Below are positions 1-45,710 of a stretch of 64,000 bases of DNA, piece after piece. Below the pieces are notes generated by a model. The model did not search any database and was not told the DNA's origin. It saw only the letters and a program-made list of their open reading frames with translations. The stretch spans positions 60,177 to 124,176 of the forward strand of contig CALVPX010000052.1 in the NCBI GenBank assembly GCA_944354265.1. Direction: 5' to 3'. The DNA comes from an uncultured Clostridia bacterium (GTDB lineage Bacteria; Bacillota; Clostridia; Christensenellales; Borkfalkiaceae). Each line of letters opens with the position of its first letter. The stretch's first letter is position 1. The position numbers and the translations under genes were made by a program.

Positions 1-60
1 TTGATATAATGTTAACGACAAAAATAAAAACATTTTTTTAATTCGGAGGATTAATTAGTT

Positions 61-1077
61 ATGGCAAATGTTAGAGTTGCTATCAATGGTTTCGGTCGTA
101 TCGGCCGTCTGGCTTTCAGACAGATGTTCGATGCAGAAGGTTATGAAATCGTAGCTATCAACGATCTTACCAGCCCCAAAATGCTGGCTCATCTTTTGAA
201 GTACGATTCAGCTCAGGGCAGATATAAGTATGCCGACAGCGTTGTCGCCGGCGACGATTATATCACCGTAAACGGCAAGACCATTAAAATCTATGCTGAG
301 AAGGATGCCGCAAACCTTCCTTGGAAGGAAGTAGGCGTAGACGTCGTTCTTGAATGCACCGGCTTCTATACTTCCAAAGAAAAGGCTATGGCTCACATCA
401 ACGCAGGCGCTAAGAAGTGCGTTATCTCCGCACCCGCCGGCAACGACCTTCCCACAATTGTTTACAGCGTAAACGAAAAGACGTTGAAGCCCACCGATAC
501 CGTCATTTCCGCCGCAAGCTGCACAACTAACTGCCTCGCTCCAATGGCTGACGCTCTCAACAAGCTCTGCAAGATCAAGAAGGGCTACATGACGACTATC
601 CACGCCTACACCGGCGATCAGATGATTCTCGACGGCCCTCACCGCAAGGGCGACTTAAGAAGGGCAAGAGCAGCTGCAGTTAACATCGTTCCCAACTCCA
701 CGGGCGCTGCAAAGGCTATCGGCCTCGTTATTCCCGAGCTCAAGGGCGTTCTCGACGGTTGTGCACAGCGCGTTCCCGTTCCCACCGGTTCGCTTACTCA
801 GCTCATCGCAGTTTGCGAAGGCGAAATCACCGCTGAAGAAGTCAATGCTGCAATGAAGGCTGCCGCTTCCGCATCCTATGGCTACACTGAAGAAGAAATC
901 GTTTCTTCCGACGTCATCGGCATGACCTACGGCTCGCTCTTCGACGCAACACAGACAAAGTGCATGCCTATGGGCGATGGCACAACCCTTGTAAAAGTGG
1001 TTTCTTGGTACGACAACGAAAATTCTTACACATCGCAGATGGTAAGAACAATCAAGTACTTCGCCGAATTAAAGTAA
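61..1077 (+). CDS. gap: type I glyceraldehyde-3-phosphate dehydrogenase
   Basis: N-terminal NGFGRIGR Rossmann motif, catalytic SCTTNCLAP motif and C-terminal WYDNE. GGAGGA RBS about 10 nt upstream of the ATG. Confidence 0.95.
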
Positions 1078-15321: not shown

Positions 15322-15511
15322 GTAGTTAGATAAAAAAAGTATTGTTTGAAAAATACGCAGAGAAGAGAATGCCGCCGAAACCCCTTAGGGGGTGGTACGG
15401 GGAAGAGGATTCGCCGCTTGGGCGCGGCGCACGGTTGACAGCCCAAGCCGAGGGCTGTCAAGTCGTCGGTAGAGACCTCCGACCTGCGCAATAAGTTGCT
15501 TGTGTTTCTCA

Positions 15512-15635
15512 AGCGGCGCAATGTCAACGCCGCTTTCGGTCACCGTTCACGCGTGACTTTGCGTTTACTCATCTCGCAAGGCAAAACAGCAGGTTTCTGC
15601 TGTTTTGAGAATGCCTTGCTCGTCCTCGAATCCTC
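15512..15635. ncRNA. unclassified structured-RNA-like element, copy A (homolog of 32020-32144); strand unresolved
   Basis: Aligns colinearly with copy B. There are conserved unpaired blocks and four helices whose sequences differ but stay complementary. The ORFs crossing it run into a terminator and a tRNA gene. Confidence 0.5.
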
Positions 15636-15650
15636 TATTCTCTCGCCAAG

Positions 15651-15690
15651 AAAAAGCCGCGGATATAACAAAAAGTTATATCCGCGGCTT
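15651..15690. terminator. terminator hairpin immediately 3-prime of tRNA-Ser (usable on both strands)
   Basis: 15-bp stem AGCCGCGGATATAAC/GTTATATCCGCGGCT. On the minus strand it is followed by TTTTTCTT, and on the plus strand by TTT. Confidence 0.8.
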
Positions 15691-15780
15691 TGGCGCAGAG
15701 AAGAGGATTCGAACCTCCGTACGTGTTCCCACGTAACACGATTTCGAGTCGTGCGCATTCGACCACTCTGCCATCTCTGC
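15691..15780 (-). tRNA. tRNA-Ser (anticodon CGA), class II with long variable arm, CCA encoded
   Basis: Manual cloverleaf: acceptor GCAGAGA/TCTCTGC, anticodon stem CACGA/TCGTG with loop CTCGAAA, variable-arm hairpin TACGTG-GGAA-CACGTA, T arm GGAGG-TTCGAAT-CCTCT, discriminator G and CCA. Confidence 0.9.
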
Positions 15781-15791
15781 GTGACTTAATC

Positions 15792-31955: not shown

Positions 31956-32019
31956 TCCGCAATTGGTTGGTCCTCTTCGGTAACAGGTAATACAATTCCC
32001 GCATTGGTTGTTGCCTCTC

Positions 32020-32144
32020 AGGCAACGCAAGGATAACGTTGCCTTCGGTCATCGTTCGCACCTACTGTTGTGCTCACTCATCTCGTGCGGCAAAACAGCG
32101 GGTCGCCGCTGTTTTGATAACTCCGCACTCGTCCCACGATTCCC
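32020..32144. ncRNA. unclassified structured-RNA-like element, copy B (homolog of 15512-15635); strand unresolved
   Basis: Same block order and spacing as copy A. Helices AGGCAACG/CGTTGCCT, GCAC/GTGC, TGCGG/CCGCA and CAAAACAGCGG/CCGCTGTTTTG. Confidence 0.5.
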
Positions 32145-32161
32145 GCATTGTGACTATAAAA

Positions 32162-32197
32162 ACATAAACAGCCCTGCATTTGCAGGGCTGTTTATGT
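32162..32197. terminator. terminator hairpin immediately 3-prime of tRNA-Arg (usable on both strands)
   Basis: 17-nt arms ACATAAACAGCCCTGCA/TGCAGGGCTGTTTATGT. The minus strand has a T-rich tail (TTTTTATAG) and the plus strand has TT. Confidence 0.75.
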
Positions 32198-32198
32198 T

Positions 32199-32273
32199 TG
32201 GTACTCCCGGCGGGAATCGAACCCACAACGGCCCCTTAGGAGGGGGCTGTTATATCCATTTAACTACGGAAGC
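32199..32273 (-). tRNA. tRNA-Arg (anticodon CCT), CCA encoded
   Basis: Manual cloverleaf: acceptor GCTTCCG/CGGGAGT (two G-U pairs), D arm GTTA-AATGGATA-TAAC, anticodon stem GCCCC/GGGGC with loop CTCCTAA, T arm GTGGG-TTCGATT-CCCGC, discriminator A and CCA. Confidence 0.85.
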
Positions 32274-32348
32274 AAAAATTTACCTTAATATAATACAACA
32301 ACTAATAAAAAAAATCAATAATTTTAATGCTTAAAAGTATAAATTTAT

Positions 32349-44768: not shown

Positions 44769-45710
44769 TTGATATATCTTGTCTGCGTCCTTGCTTCTTT
44801 TGCCGTGTCGCTCGTGTTAACCGCGGCGCTGCTGCCATTGCTTAAAAAGTTCAAAGCGGGGCAGTATATTCTTTCATATGTAAAACAGCATGCTTCAAAG
44901 AGCGGGACCCCCACAATGGGCGGTCTCGCCTTTGTGGCGGCGATAATTATTGTGTCGTTTTGCTTTTGCGGATTTTCGGACAACAAAATCAATCTCACTC
45001 TGTCGGTTACGGCCGGATTCGCGGTGGTGGGGTTCCTTGATGATTTCCTCAAAATTTACCGCAAGGAAAACGAGGGGCTGAAGCCCTATCAGAAGATAAT
45101 ATTTCAGCTTGCAATAGCGACAATTGCCGCGGTTTATTGCTATGTGAATAGTATTACGTCTGTCATAATACCCTTTGGCGGCGGGTTGAGCGTAGATATC
45201 GGTTGGGCAATTATCCCCTTGGTGCTGTTTGTGTTCATTGCCACGGTCAATTGCGTCAATTTAACCGACGGGCTCGACGGCCTTGCGGGGTCAACTTCAT
45301 TGGCGTATCTCGCCGTACTCGGCGTGATGCTCGCGCTGACGGGGGCGGGCGGACAAACGGTAGCGTTTTCCGCCGTGGGCGCGCTCGCTGCCTTTCTGAT
45401 TTTTAACTGCAGCAAGGCCTGTGTTTTTATGGGTGATACGGGTTCTCTCGCGCTCGGCGGGCTTATATCATGCCTGTCCGTTTTTTCCGGCAATGTGCTT
45501 TATATACCTGTGCTCGGCATAATGTTTGTTGTGTCAGGCATATCCGTCATCGTTCAAGTAATATATTATAAAAGGACGAAGCGCAGGGTATTTTTGATGG
45601 CTCCAATACATCATCACTTTCAGATGAAAGGGTTTTCAGAGAGCAAAATATCTTATGTATATTTTTTAATAACCTCGCTCGTCGGAATGTTTTGTCTGAT
45701 ATTTGTGTGA
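44769..45710 (+). CDS. mraY: phospho-N-acetylmuramoyl-pentapeptide-transferase
   Basis: 10-TM protein with the TPTMGG, DDF.K, NLTDGLDGLA and APIHHHF motifs. TTG start. Confidence 0.95.
   Translation: MIYLVCVLASFAVSLVLTAALLPLLKKFKAGQYILSYVKQHASKSGTPTMGGLAFVAAIIIVSFCFCGFSDNKINLTLSVTAGFAVVGFLDDFLKIYRKENEGLKPYQKIIFQLAIATIAAVYCYVNSITSVIIPFGGGLSVDIGWAIIPLVLFVFIATVNCVNLTDGLDGLAGSTSLAYLAVLGVMLALTGAGGQTVAFSAVGALAAFLIFNCSKACVFMGDTGSLALGGLISCLSVFSGNVLYIPVLGIMFVVSGISVIVQVIYYKRTKRRVFLMAPIHHHFQMKGFSESKISYVYFLITSLVGMFCLIFV

Follow-up and report, generated by a model that had tools for sequence, protein, structure and literature searches.

Two regions of the 64,000-nt stretch of DNA analysed here (the window) are read, at roughly even odds (a probability of about 0.5), as copies of a new lineage-specific, non-coding, non-autonomous mobile structured repeat. 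Both had been picked out in an earlier note, at 15512-15635 and 32020-32144, as a structured-RNA-like core present twice; their colinear alignment was borne out, the blocks TTCGGTCA(C/T)CGTTC, ACTCATCTCG and CTCGTCC were found in both, and the four helices that differ in sequence between the copies yet remain complementary were seen, with a 9-nt loop CAAnGnnAA and two 8-nt loops. The regions are real, but their boundaries shift to 15506-15623 and 32015-32132 on the minus strand, each unit reading ACGAG...GAGAN, when set by comparison of filled and empty sites and an alignment of 106 copies; positions 15624-15635 belong to the flank, where the tRNA-Ser 3' end is copied in inverted orientation, and 15506-15511, with the GAGAA end, had been missed. 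With a covariance model trained on 26 family members, which separates members cleanly (60–140 bits) from noise (below 15 bits), the window copies scored 124.7 bits (copy 1, E = 5e-31) and 123.3 bits (copy 2, E = 1.1e-30), and no third copy was found in the 64-kb window at E ≤ 10.

Copy 1 (118 nt, 15506..15623, minus strand; placed by covariance-model match, alignments and filled/empty boundaries) begins with joint J0/1 ACGAG (15623-15619), followed by P1 (15618-15613 with 15582-15577), which encloses hairpin P1a (15606-15597 with 15592-15583), J1/2 CGAGAUGAGUAA (15576-15565), P2 (15564-15561 with 15552-15549), J2/3 GAACGGUGACCGA (15548-15536), P3 (15535-15528 with 15518-15511) and the 3' end GAGAA (15510-15506), all on the minus strand. 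Copy 2 (118 nt, 32015..32132, minus strand; placed by covariance-model match and colinear alignment) has the same architecture, with ACGAG from 32132 and GAGAG to 32015. Each copy follows a tRNA gene of its own (minus) strand, ~66 nt after the gene's 3' end and with the tRNA's terminator hairpin in the gap, which the earlier note had missed: tRNA-Ser(CGA) at 15691..15780 upstream of core 1 and tRNA-Arg(CCT) at 32199..32273 upstream of core 2, both co-oriented with the core and both found by ARAGORN and the Rfam tRNA model. The terminator hairpins, located by sequence and folding, are on the minus strand at 15653..15690, right behind the tRNA-Ser CCA with its U tract on that strand, and at 32158..32198; the former belongs to a segment that, by contig comparison, is missing from the variant contig L127.

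The surroundings of copy 1, described here on the minus strand, contain several further pieces of the tRNA-Ser 3' end. At 15626..15648 lies UGGCGAGAGAAUAGAGGAUUCGA, in which the final ~22 nt of tRNA-Ser, CCA among them, are repeated in antisense; fold prediction makes it the 5' strand of a long helix that closes around core 1 and its tail; the predicted 3' strand is an imperfect, att-like direct repeat of the tRNA-Ser 3' end from the T loop on (CGAAUCCUCUUCCCCGUACCA, 15393..15413), and a second, shorter direct-repeat remnant (CAUUCUCUUCUCUGCGUA) follows at 15354..15371. The inverted tRNA 3'-end arrangement recurs in L108 and L043, there with tRNA-Arg. The tail (15414..15505) comprises hairpin GGUCGGAGGUCUCUACCGAC (15483-15464), hairpin UUGACAGCCC..GGGCUGUCAA (15461-15435) and module CCGUGCGCCGCGCCCAAGCGG (15434-15414), and its modules 1 (GGUCGGAGGUCUCUACCGAC) and 3 (CCGUGCGCCGCGCCCAAGCGG) also trail the core in L011, beside tRNA-Leu. 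A tmRNA- or tRNA-like reading of copy 1, suggested by GGAUUCG, GCCGAGGG and an ACCA end, was rejected: ARAGORN and Rfam were negative, and the pieces derive from the 3' end of the neighbouring tRNA-Ser, copied in direct and in inverted orientation. Core 2 is flanked on the minus strand by a 12-nt direct repeat, CAAUGCGGGAAU, 6 nt to its 5' side (32139..32150) and 8 nt to its 3' side (31995..32006). The genes around the window copies are ordinary metabolic genes, and no integrase lies at either copy.

A single strand of the cassette folds as three hairpins, P1 (with nested P1a), P2 and P3, joined by invariant purine-rich joints (ACGAG / CGAGAUGAGUGA / GAACGNUGACCGA / GAGA), and the fourth, closing helix is built from host sequence which empty sites have too. 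About 45 unpaired nucleotides, purine-rich on the tRNA strand, are invariant, and conserved nucleotides lie in the P3 loop and at the start of the P2 loop. The three hairpins were 98–99.6% paired over 121 copies; in the covariation test double-sided changes were found at 24 of 25 pairs, with 95% of cells paired, and the observed covariation was matched by 0 of 500 shuffles (slid controls were all far lower), in an alignment that was fitted to the covariance model and to that extent favours structure. The conserved multi-helix structure proposed earlier thus stands on very strong covariation. A pseudoknot joining GUGAG of J1/2 to the P3 loop (CCUUAC) was dropped, its variants lacking consistent covariation, and a pairing of GGACG at the 5' end with the CGUCC that many P2 loops contain is conceivable but missing from many copies and without covariation.

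The pairs themselves are almost exclusively Watson-Crick (2240 of 2284 cells, with 18 G-U, or 0.8%, and 8 A-C, or 0.35%), whereas the tRNA stems of the same loci have ~11% G-U, which is ~14-fold commoner there than in the core helices. Such near-pure Watson-Crick helices are typically unusual for RNA genes and usual for DNA palindromes, and compensatory changes alone are therefore no proof of selection on RNA. Of the earlier claim of a conserved RNA, the conserved structure holds, while the RNA nature is not supported by this pattern as it was stated, given a high-copy dispersed repeat with insertion/deletion polymorphism, lineage-specific near-identical copies, tandem arrays and helices that are almost purely Watson-Crick; the conserved DNA hairpin then offered as an alternative is fully compatible with the results. 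As to the strand, the minus strand is favoured by tRNA co-orientation, placement in tRNA leaders and the purine-rich joints, while the wobble counts do not discriminate. The strand-asymmetric tolerance of G-U expected of an RNA gene was not seen in the 18 G-U against 8 A-C cells.

An exact-pattern scan of species-representative genomes returned at least 117 stretches and the covariance model 121 hits in 100 loci, which bears out the suggestion of an undescribed family with many homologues. Among the matches listed, the hosts are almost all metagenome-assembled genomes (MAGs) named Christensenella, Christensenellaceae, Ca. Scatosoma, Ca. Coproplasma or uncultured Clostridia; a single MAG has at least 17 copies, many copies lie at contig ends, near-identical copies occur within one MAG, and sub-types follow host lineage. 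The window's own locus was present in 8–10 strain-level contigs with the element unchanged in all, so that no sign of ongoing movement is seen there, which speaks against a mobile repeat; at both window loci every long contig has the element, and the short contig L127 alone differs. No known RNA family was matched by Rfam 15, whose models took in tmRNA, RNase P, SRP, 6S, T-box, riboswitches, group II intron domains, GOLLD/ROOL/HEARO and the hammerhead, twister, pistol, hatchet and HDV ribozymes: at gathering thresholds two tRNAs were the only matches in the 64 kb, and at E ≤ 10 in both 600-nt regions the cores were overlapped only by a permuted-tmRNA match of 16.9 bits against a threshold of 47. 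The element had no match among 72,556 plasmids and 50,697 phages or in a pattern scan of viral contigs, and no earlier description of it was found in the literature.

The cassette is a discrete unit of ~118–125 nt with a sharp 5' boundary, present in one and absent from the other of otherwise near-identical paralogues; ~16 independent filled/empty pairs share the boundaries ACGAG...GAGAN behind RRGG. Insertion is directly 3' of RRGG (GCG in tRNA-Arg), at or beside a host hairpin loop, with 1–5 nt of target replaced and none duplicated in the filled/empty pairs, and one scar retains the last 6 nt of the cassette. Of 98 copies, 43 lie between direct repeats of at least 12 nt, whereas with flanks swapped as a control the figure was 2.7%; the repeats are variable (12–77 nt) and often parts of tandem host units, and tandem units occur with one filled and the next empty (L010 has a 116-nt tandem array). 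Copies multiply within genomes, tandem arrays included. Most of the filled/empty pairs are paralogues inside other repeat families, and spread by gene conversion or tandem duplication instead of true transposition is possible.

Full tRNA genes within 150 nt of a core were co-oriented with it in 24 of 24 cases. In tRNA-derived sequence the cassette sits at unpaired joints (nt 27/28 or 47/48): tRNA nt 1-27, core and tRNA nt 29-48 follow one another upstream of intact tRNA-Arg-ACG, tRNA-Val-GAC and tRNA-Glu-CTC, the upstream site of the orthologous tRNA-Arg locus being empty in L043, L088 and L108, and tRNA nt 35-47, core and tRNA nt 50-77 lie downstream of tRNA-Arg. Because the tRNA-adjacent copies come with a duplicated tRNA piece, the intact tRNA gene is always retained; a tRNA intron was rejected, since each interrupted tRNA copy is partial and next to an intact gene, so that splicing is neither required nor indicated. 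An att-type direct repeat of the tRNA 3' end was seen only in a downstream subset, namely L011 (a ~300-nt element bounded by a perfect 21-nt repeat of the tRNA-Leu 3' end, with tail modules common to window copy 1), window copy 1 itself (imperfect) and L043. Contig L127 is identical to the window at 770 of 772 positions up to the tRNA-Ser CCA, unrelated beyond and without the core; it could be a chimeric metagenome assembly joined at the conserved tRNA. About three-quarters of copies are far from any tRNA, in hairpin loops of other repeats.

No neighbouring protein family recurs, and no transposase, integrase or reverse transcriptase does so; within 2.5 kb of ~110 copies no RAYT gene was found and neither tnpA nor tnpB recurred, and no mobilising enzyme or autonomous relative was found in these neighbourhoods. 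The interval between the inverted cores of L006/L075, considered as an autonomous element, encodes KDPG aldolase and a sugar kinase. A guide-RNA scaffold of the omega-RNA or bridge-RNA type was likewise discarded, there being no TnpB, IscB or IS110 neighbour and no consistent complementarity of the variable P2 loop to the flanks. Relative to the flanking genes every arrangement of the core is seen, with upstream genes co-oriented 57 to 29; core strand against the sign of local GC skew was 51 positive to 52 negative, and 24 to 15 where absolute skew exceeded 0.06, in an 8-kb proxy that is noisy.

The main rival, that the element is a functional structured RNA read from the tRNA strand, as a small self-cleaving or self-processing ribozyme or a protein-binding scaffold, is possible but doubtful. 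Such an RNA would depend on strong tRNA promoters, being made either within the 5' leader or when transcription runs on beyond the tRNA terminator, with the four-way junction and its invariant purine-rich joints as active or binding core; a ribozyme cutting its own 5' edge between GG and ACGAG would free the module from host transcripts, and multiplicity would reflect RNA-mediated or recombinational spread of a selfish RNA. HDV-like ribozymes release R2 elements from host transcripts. The consistent co-orientation with tRNA genes and the copies in tRNA leaders fit an RNA role and count against a mobile repeat: at the tRNA-Arg-ACG, Val, Glu and Pro loci the sole sigma-70-like promoter lies upstream of the core(s) with the tRNA after, and the core must therefore be transcribed in tRNA orientation there. 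The excess of co-oriented upstream genes, the sharp 5' boundary, the invariant unpaired purine-rich nucleotides together with the conserved P3 and P2 loop nucleotides, and the preponderance of G-U over A-C on the tRNA strand are also in keeping with RNA; invariant joints of 12–14 nt combined with free helices fit an RNA tertiary core better than protein-recognised DNA hairpins, again to the detriment of the mobile repeat, and the three-helix topology with GAUGA...GAA joints is, judged from sequence, loosely hammerhead-like. Yet the rarity of G-U relative to tRNAs of the same loci is unexpected under RNA-level selection alone, the window copies lie behind strong terminators with no adjoining promoter-like site on either strand, no Rfam riboswitch model was matched at E ≤ 10 any more than a ribozyme, the hammerhead-essential C3 and GAAA-stem III junction are absent, every arrangement relative to flanking genes occurs, and no reverse transcriptase recurs nearby.

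It is very unlikely that the core is the attachment-site arm region of tyrosine-integrase islands in tRNA 3' ends, the small tRNA-adjacent copies being integrase-less remnants or miniature derivatives mobilised in trans. In L078, 59 nt separate the end of a Phage_integrase gene from the core, and a tRNA-Gln 3' fragment lies on the core's other side together with a terminator and three AAAUYGUGGGG repeats; L011 and window copy 1 are bounded by direct repeats of the tRNA 3' end that begin within the T loop, and the divergence of L127 sets in precisely where the tRNA ends. An integrase is present, however, at only 1 of ~100 loci, about three-quarters of copies are far from tRNAs and lie in hairpin loops of other repeats, the copies upstream of tRNAs split nt 27/28, which is no integrase-type site, and arm regions are not expected to maintain three hairpins by paired substitutions. 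An oriT or single-strand origin of small Mob_Pre (MOBV) relaxase elements, with the chromosomal copies as orphan sites, is extremely unlikely. Rolling-circle plasmid origins are folded single-stranded DNA with conserved unpaired motifs, and at one locus (L091, L002, L050) a Mob_Pre gene starts ~70 nt from the core, co-directional with its plus strand; but the idea is largely refuted by the covariance model's finding no core at 14 loci around two other Mob_Pre homologues (~50% identity) that lie in serine-recombinase elements, the plasmid and phage collections were negative, and in L091 a separate hairpin (AAGTGTAG..CTACACTT) between core and mob is the likelier nick region. Chance similarity or a protein-coding remnant, with plus-strand ORFs encoding ..SVTVR..MRSLIS.. 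peptides, deserves next to no credence. The ORFs through the core at 15496-15789 and 32008-32334 are real and such ORFs cluster between loci, but, as had been said earlier of these two, they traverse terminators and (antisense) tRNA genes; covariance-model E-values of ~1e-30 and substitutions paired across the helices, without codon periodicity, refute both ideas, loop-length variation shifts the frame, and the earlier view of the core as non-coding is upheld.

The mobile-repeat reading is favoured by copy number, the discrete cassette, tRNA targeting, the lack of a coding partner and the palindrome-like helices. Insertion would act on folded single-stranded nucleic acid, the invariant joints being where a factor encoded elsewhere in the genome, or the element's own fold, would recognise, cleave and join; the helices would need only to pair, and for this reason their sequences would drift as perfect Watson-Crick palindromes, while the tRNA 3'-end copies (window copy 1 and L011) would come from att-like recombination in the T loop. 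Unlikely is a new class of self-acting cassette, in the form of a small ribozyme or of a single strand that is catalytic or guided by structure, which cuts itself out between GG and ACGAG and after GAGAN and joins exposed loops of other folded strands: it would insert into hairpin loops and unpaired tRNA joints and be fixed in DNA with partial target duplication. If this were true it would be a bacterial loop-targeting mobile RNA or single-stranded DNA element without a protein of its own, in which both polarities must fold, explaining the perfect Watson-Crick helices.

If the mobile-repeat reading is right, a previously uncatalogued high-copy element is present in a single branch of gut Clostridia, that of Christensenella and its relatives, a group that figures prominently in studies of association with host health; it would fragment MAG assemblies and remodel tRNA loci via partial tRNA copies, new leaders and new terminators. 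The element is prone to ORF mis-calling, and annotation based on Rfam would miss it. Identification of whatever moves it, a factor or its own activity, could bring to light a new insertion chemistry guided by structure; should the element be an RNA instead, more than 100 natural variants of a new ~120-nt four-way-junction motif are at hand for testing ribozyme activity or ligand binding. The element is unusual among the small repeats of bacteria in combining invariant linkers with free helices, single-stranded targets and no attached transposase.

Small self-cleaving ribozymes (hammerhead, twister, hatchet, HDV-like at the R2 5' edge) are often linked to mobile DNA, and the present element resembles them in its small size, three helices and purine-rich joints, and the repeat-associated ones in its multiple copies and sharp 5' boundary, GAUGA...GAA recalling the hammerhead; unlike known ribozymes, it matches no Rfam ribozyme model at E ≤ 10. 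In the hammerhead, C3-U4-G5-A6-N7-G8-A9 abuts stem II, G12-A13-A14 abuts stem III and an NUH triplet follows stem III. Here GAGAUGA and GUGA precede P2, GAA and CGGUGACCGA precede P3 and GAGAA follows it, C3 is replaced and extra nucleotides part the joints from the helices, and a hammerhead core was rejected. As in genomic islands at tRNA 3' ends, window copy 1 and L011 are bounded by a repeat starting in the T loop, the tRNA is intact and a variant lacks the segment; unlike such islands, the whole of the would-be island is ~300 nt of structured non-coding DNA, the segments match different tRNAs (Ser, Leu, Arg), and other copies interrupt tRNA nt 27/28 or 47/48 or unrelated hairpins. Integron attC sites (57–141 nt, one imperfect hairpin, R/L boxes GTTRRRY, cassette arrays beside intI) are recognised as folded single-stranded DNA, and the element resembles them in keeping structure over sequence, with copies that differ by paired changes; it differs in being dispersed, with three hairpins and other motifs, and no intI context or recurrent recombinase neighbour was seen.

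With IS200/IS605 elements and PATEs the element shares the lack of terminal inverted repeats and of target duplication, insertion 3' of a short motif and subterminal hairpins. IS200/IS605 elements insert into single-stranded DNA, and their subterminal hairpins are sequence-specific, alike at both ends and recognised by TnpA. In the present element the hairpin sequences vary between copies and ends with only pairing kept, 1–5 target nt are replaced and no tnpA/tnpB recurs nearby; set against the lagging-strand bias of IS200/IS605, the GC-skew split is even in the noisy 8-kb proxy. REP/REPIN sequences, mobilised by a single-copy RAYT (HUH) transposase, are likewise many short palindromic repeats without an adjacent gene and with perfectly palindromic helices; they reach hundreds of copies and have been proposed as folded single strands moved in trans by one distant gene, REPINs being inverted REP doublets. 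REPs are single hairpins of 20–40 nt with a GTAG or CGTC tag (PMC3733652). In the element, by contrast, no tag is present, and fixed linkers connect three distinct hairpins of free sequence. Neither the terminal inverted repeats of MITEs (the ends ACGAG and GAGAN are non-complementary) nor a fixed-length target duplication such as the 5-bp one of bcr1 is found, and no known transposition chemistry is therefore matched. Bcr1 itself, a mobile repeat of ~155 bp from the Bacillus cereus group, is both transcribed and marked by compensatory changes (PMC3184786), and it offers a precedent in favour of the mobile-repeat reading. The long hairpin or cruciform of bcr1-type repeats is replaced here by a multi-helix junction with its invariant unpaired nucleotides, hairpin loops and tRNA joints are targeted, tRNA segment duplications are brought along and there is no sequence similarity. 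Like bcr1 and, more widely, the MITE-like small repeats RUP, BOX, SPRITE, Correia/nemis and ERIC, the element is a lineage-specific, intergenic, non-coding unit of 100–160 nt in tens to hundreds of copies, and it shares with bcr1-type repeats mobile behaviour without a gene of its own and a stable fold with compensatory changes.

The regions 15512-15635 and 32020-32144, described in an earlier note as two copies of a structured-RNA-like core, were colinear in alignment; the listed blocks, helices and loops were all present, as were the two open reading frames running through them. The units themselves spanned 15506-15623 (core 1) and 32015-32132 (core 2), both on the minus strand. A covariance model built from 26 family members (R1) gave them scores of 124.7 and 123.3 bits, each with E near 1e-30, and detected no third core in the 64-kb window at a threshold as loose as E ≤ 10; a stretch at 45542-45555 with a 2-mismatch likeness to the TTCGGTCAYCGTTC block had no covariance-model match and was rejected as chance. 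A cmscan-type check against Rfam returned two tRNAs alone at gathering score and nothing meaningful over the cores at E ≤ 10. Core 1 lay ~66 nt past the 3' end of tRNA-Ser-CGA (15691-15780, minus strand) and core 2 ~66 nt past that of tRNA-Arg-CCT (32199-32273, minus strand), with a tRNA terminator hairpin between gene and core in both cases. Flanking genes were ordinary metabolic genes, and no promoter-like site adjoining the window copies was found.

The earlier note had proposed a search for further homologues, and R1 gave 121 hits in 100 loci (60-142 bits). An exact-pattern scan of species-representative genomes (TCGGTCANCGTTC, 12-26 nt gap, CTCATCTCG) matched at least 117 stretches; three were chance matches in Actinobacteria, and the remaining matches listed came from MAGs named Christensenella, Christensenellaceae, Ca. 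Scatosoma, Ca. Coproplasma, uncultured Clostridia or Eubacteriales, the named genera of which belong to the GTDB order Christensenellales. At least 17 copies were present in a single MAG (Lapin-024 bin72), many copies lay at contig ends, and plasmid, phage and viral collections yielded no core. At loci of Lapin-0xx MAGs (e.g. L012, L048, L099, L030, L097, L106) many cores were embedded in other repeats, dispersed or tandem, that themselves form dense families, with host units containing e.g. CUCGAAAUGACA, CAAUUUGCGCAUACCUGCGCCUCAGC followed by AUUCACC, or CCCUACCACCACGUGGGGGAUUCCUCC; modular intergenic repeats seem unusually plentiful in these genomes.

Read on the strand of the window tRNAs, the 118-125 nt core consisted of ACGAG, helix P1 (5-6 bp), hairpin P1a nested behind an internal loop, CGAGAUGAGUGA, helix P2 (4 bp, usually GCGC, with a loop of 7-12 nt starting AU), GAACGNUGACCGA, helix P3 (8 bp, loop ending CCUUAC or CCUUGC) and a terminal GAGAN; the fourth, closing helix (P0) took both strands from the flanking host sequence. 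Over the 121-copy alignment pairing was 99.2% in P1a, 99.6% in P2 and 98.1% in P3, with double-sided changes in 24 of 25 pairs; neither 500 shuffles nor any slid register came near this pairing, the alignment having been fitted to the model, which favours structure. R1 mis-aligned P1 in two sub-types, and P1 covaried on direct reading. The core proved to be a new and abundant non-coding unit, restricted to one lineage, sharply bounded and folded into four helices with invariant joints.

The compensatory changes reported earlier were real but do not on their own establish an RNA, the helices being almost purely Watson-Crick: 2240 of 2284 cells in P1a, P2 and P3, against 18 G-U and 8 A-C (an A-C cell on one strand being G-U on the opposite strand). 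Minimum-free-energy stems of 22 tRNAs from the core loci contained ~11% G-U. Because G-U and A-C are nearly absent, the helices behave as perfect palindromes, which is the pattern of DNA-level hairpins or of both polarities needing to fold; an RNA evolving via wobble intermediates would be expected to differ. The sole recurrent hint of wobble tolerance was a common P1a variant in ~40 copies (e.g. L005, L013, L020), CAGCACAGUGCGCUG, in which A faces C on the tRNA strand and G would face U on the other strand; other variants have a Watson-Crick pair there. This hint favours the plus strand, against the other strand evidence.

In 43 of 98 copies the core was flanked by direct repeats 12 nt or longer, as against 2.7% when flanks were swapped between copies, and many were tandem host units, one containing the core and the next without it. 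A systematic search for sites where the sequences on either side of a copy directly adjoin each other yielded ~16 independent pairs of near-identical filled and empty sequences. In every pair the inserted unit was exactly ACGAG...GAGAN, placed after RRGG (GCG in tRNA-Arg). The core replaced 1-5 nt of the empty site (GGA, GCA, AUU, GG, UU, CA, AA or GUUUC) at or beside the loop of a short hairpin (e.g. GAGGGC-AGA-GCCCUC, GCAGG-GUUU-CCUGC), the stem of which became P0. One site (L048) retained just the last six nt, UGAGAC; a 116-nt head-to-tail array of 2.5 units was found in L010, and longer tandem units in L106, L059 and L088. The core shows insertion/deletion polymorphism at hairpin loops and has no enzyme attached.

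A tRNA or tRNA fragment lay within 150 nt of 27 of 112 copies, and all 24 full tRNA genes at this distance were on the same strand as the core in the orientation read here. In the upstream arrangement a sigma-70-like promoter was followed by tRNA(1-27), core, tRNA(29-41..48), a short spacer and the intact tRNA, the hosts being tRNA-Arg-ACG (11 MAGs, several genera), tRNA-Val-GAC and tRNA-Glu-CTC; the partial copy matched the tRNA of its own genome, and orthologous tRNA-Arg loci without an upstream core occurred in L043, L088 and L108. At tRNA-Pro a core or core array lay simply within the leader. The downstream arrangement (L043, L108) comprised the intact tRNA, a terminator, an inverted tRNA 3'-end copy, a linker, tRNA(35-47), core, tRNA(50-77)CCA and a second terminator. 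In L011 a ~300-nt unit (terminator, linker, core, 90-nt tail) was bounded by a perfect 21-nt tRNA-Leu 3'-end repeat beginning in the T loop. The core is linked to tRNA genes in a particular way, in which an intact tRNA is always retained. Wherever the core joined tRNA-derived sequence (positions 26-28 and 47-48, T loop), the junction fell on unpaired positions of the cloverleaf, in agreement with the hairpin-loop rule of the filled and empty sites, which suggests that the target is recognised in a folded, single-stranded form.

Window copy 1 follows the downstream arrangement (all features on the minus strand): the terminator after the tRNA-Ser CCA (15690-15653) was followed by an inverted tRNA-Ser 3'-end copy (15648-15626), core 1, its tail (15414-15505) and, beyond this, imperfect tRNA-Ser 3' repeats (15413-15393 and 15371-15354). 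The tail shared two modules with L011 (~530-620, reverse strand) at a different tRNA, a hairpin GGUCGGAGGNCUCUACCGAC(GAC) and CCGUGCGCCGCGCYCAAGCGG, the latter directly preceding the tRNA 3' repeat. A short metagenome contig (L127) was identical to the window at 770 of 772 positions on the tRNA side, unrelated exactly past CCA+AA, and without a core; this contig represents either an allele that is empty or otherwise different here, or a chimeric assembly. L125 and L126, from independent assemblies of the window's species, ended inside tRNA-Ser, at the equivalents of 15717 and 15726 beside the element, consistent with repeat- or variant-induced assembly breaks. Copy 2 had just a 12-nt direct repeat, CAAUGCGGGAAU, near both ends.

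Inverted tRNA 3'-end copies including the CCA complement (UGG...) followed terminators in the window (15626-15648) and, for tRNA-Arg, in L108, L043 and L016, so that tRNA 3' half, terminator and inverted complement formed a long palindrome; the copy resembles a site where that tRNA would bind as a primer, but it may be no more than part of the element's closing helix. Upstream of the intact tRNA in L108 (reverse strand, ~680-450) were two tandem partial tRNA-Arg-ACG copies (nt 1-41, 45-60), each with a different ~42-nt variable-loop insert, AAUSGUAAGGAGCGUAGCGACGGAAUAGCGAGUUUACGAGCGYC; these inserts are a second kind of small cassette interrupting partial tRNA copies. A AAAACUGAAUAU-like motif recurred 10-35 nt upstream of the mature 5' ends of several different tRNAs (leaders of L016, L093, L082 and L010); in this lineage it may serve leader processing or act as a promoter-proximal signal.

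No recurrent protein family was found within 2.5 kb of the copies. Two inverted cores surrounded sugar-acid genes in L006, and a Mob_Pre relaxase gene and a tyrosine integrase each adjoined a core at one locus; around two other Mob_Pre homologues the core was absent from all 14 loci. Such homologues (L130-L143; ~50% identity) are very common in gut metagenomes, where one of the proteins occurs on 158 contigs. Their hosts are compact integrative mobilisable elements that encode a large serine recombinase and have no relation to the core. In L091, a small island at tRNA-Gln with a relaxase and no recombinase, a hairpin AAGUGUAG-UGAG-CUACACUU (1440-1500) lay between core and Mob_Pre gene start and makes a more conventional candidate for the region nicked by that relaxase. 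Immediately 5' of the core, Coproplasma-like copies carried a ~11-nt sequence repeated two or three times in tandem (AAAUUGUGGGG / AAAUCGUGGGG), seen in L078 (1060-1095, reverse strand), in the window (32133-32150, as CAAUGCGGGAAUCGUGGG) and in L011; those of L078, between a tRNA-Gln 3' fragment and the tyrosine-integrase gene, resemble arm-type integrase sites. Core orientation showed no clear bias relative to local GC skew. Among neighbouring long ORFs, those upstream shared the core's direction in 57 cases and opposed it in 29, with 41 and 54, respectively, for those downstream.

We infer, with a probability of roughly one half, that the core is a non-autonomous mobile repeat acting via a folded single strand. 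The main rival, a functional and possibly self-processing RNA co-transcribed with tRNAs, would account for the co-orientation of cores and tRNAs, the positions in tRNA leaders and the purine-rich invariant joints, but G-U is nearly absent, the core appears to lack transcription signals of its own and its population structure is repeat-like, which leaves this explanation the less likely of the two. They are compatible: both would hold for a selfish element based on RNA, a reading that appears improbable. The finding itself is real and larger than the earlier note could show.

Among known systems, REP/REPIN elements and MITEs are related kinds, but the core has neither the terminal inverted repeats nor the fixed target duplication of MITEs and, unlike REPs, is not a single tagged palindrome. 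It lacks the sequence-specific twin hairpins of IS200/IS605 derivatives and the defining features of attC sites and of every Rfam family; the att repeats of tRNA-integrating islands were found solely in the downstream-of-tRNA subset, where the integrase was lacking. The core is therefore assigned to no named family. It comes closest to the small structured interspersed repeats, such as bcr1 of the Bacillus cereus group, which is ~155 bp long, mobile and transcribed and shows compensatory changes (PMC3184786).
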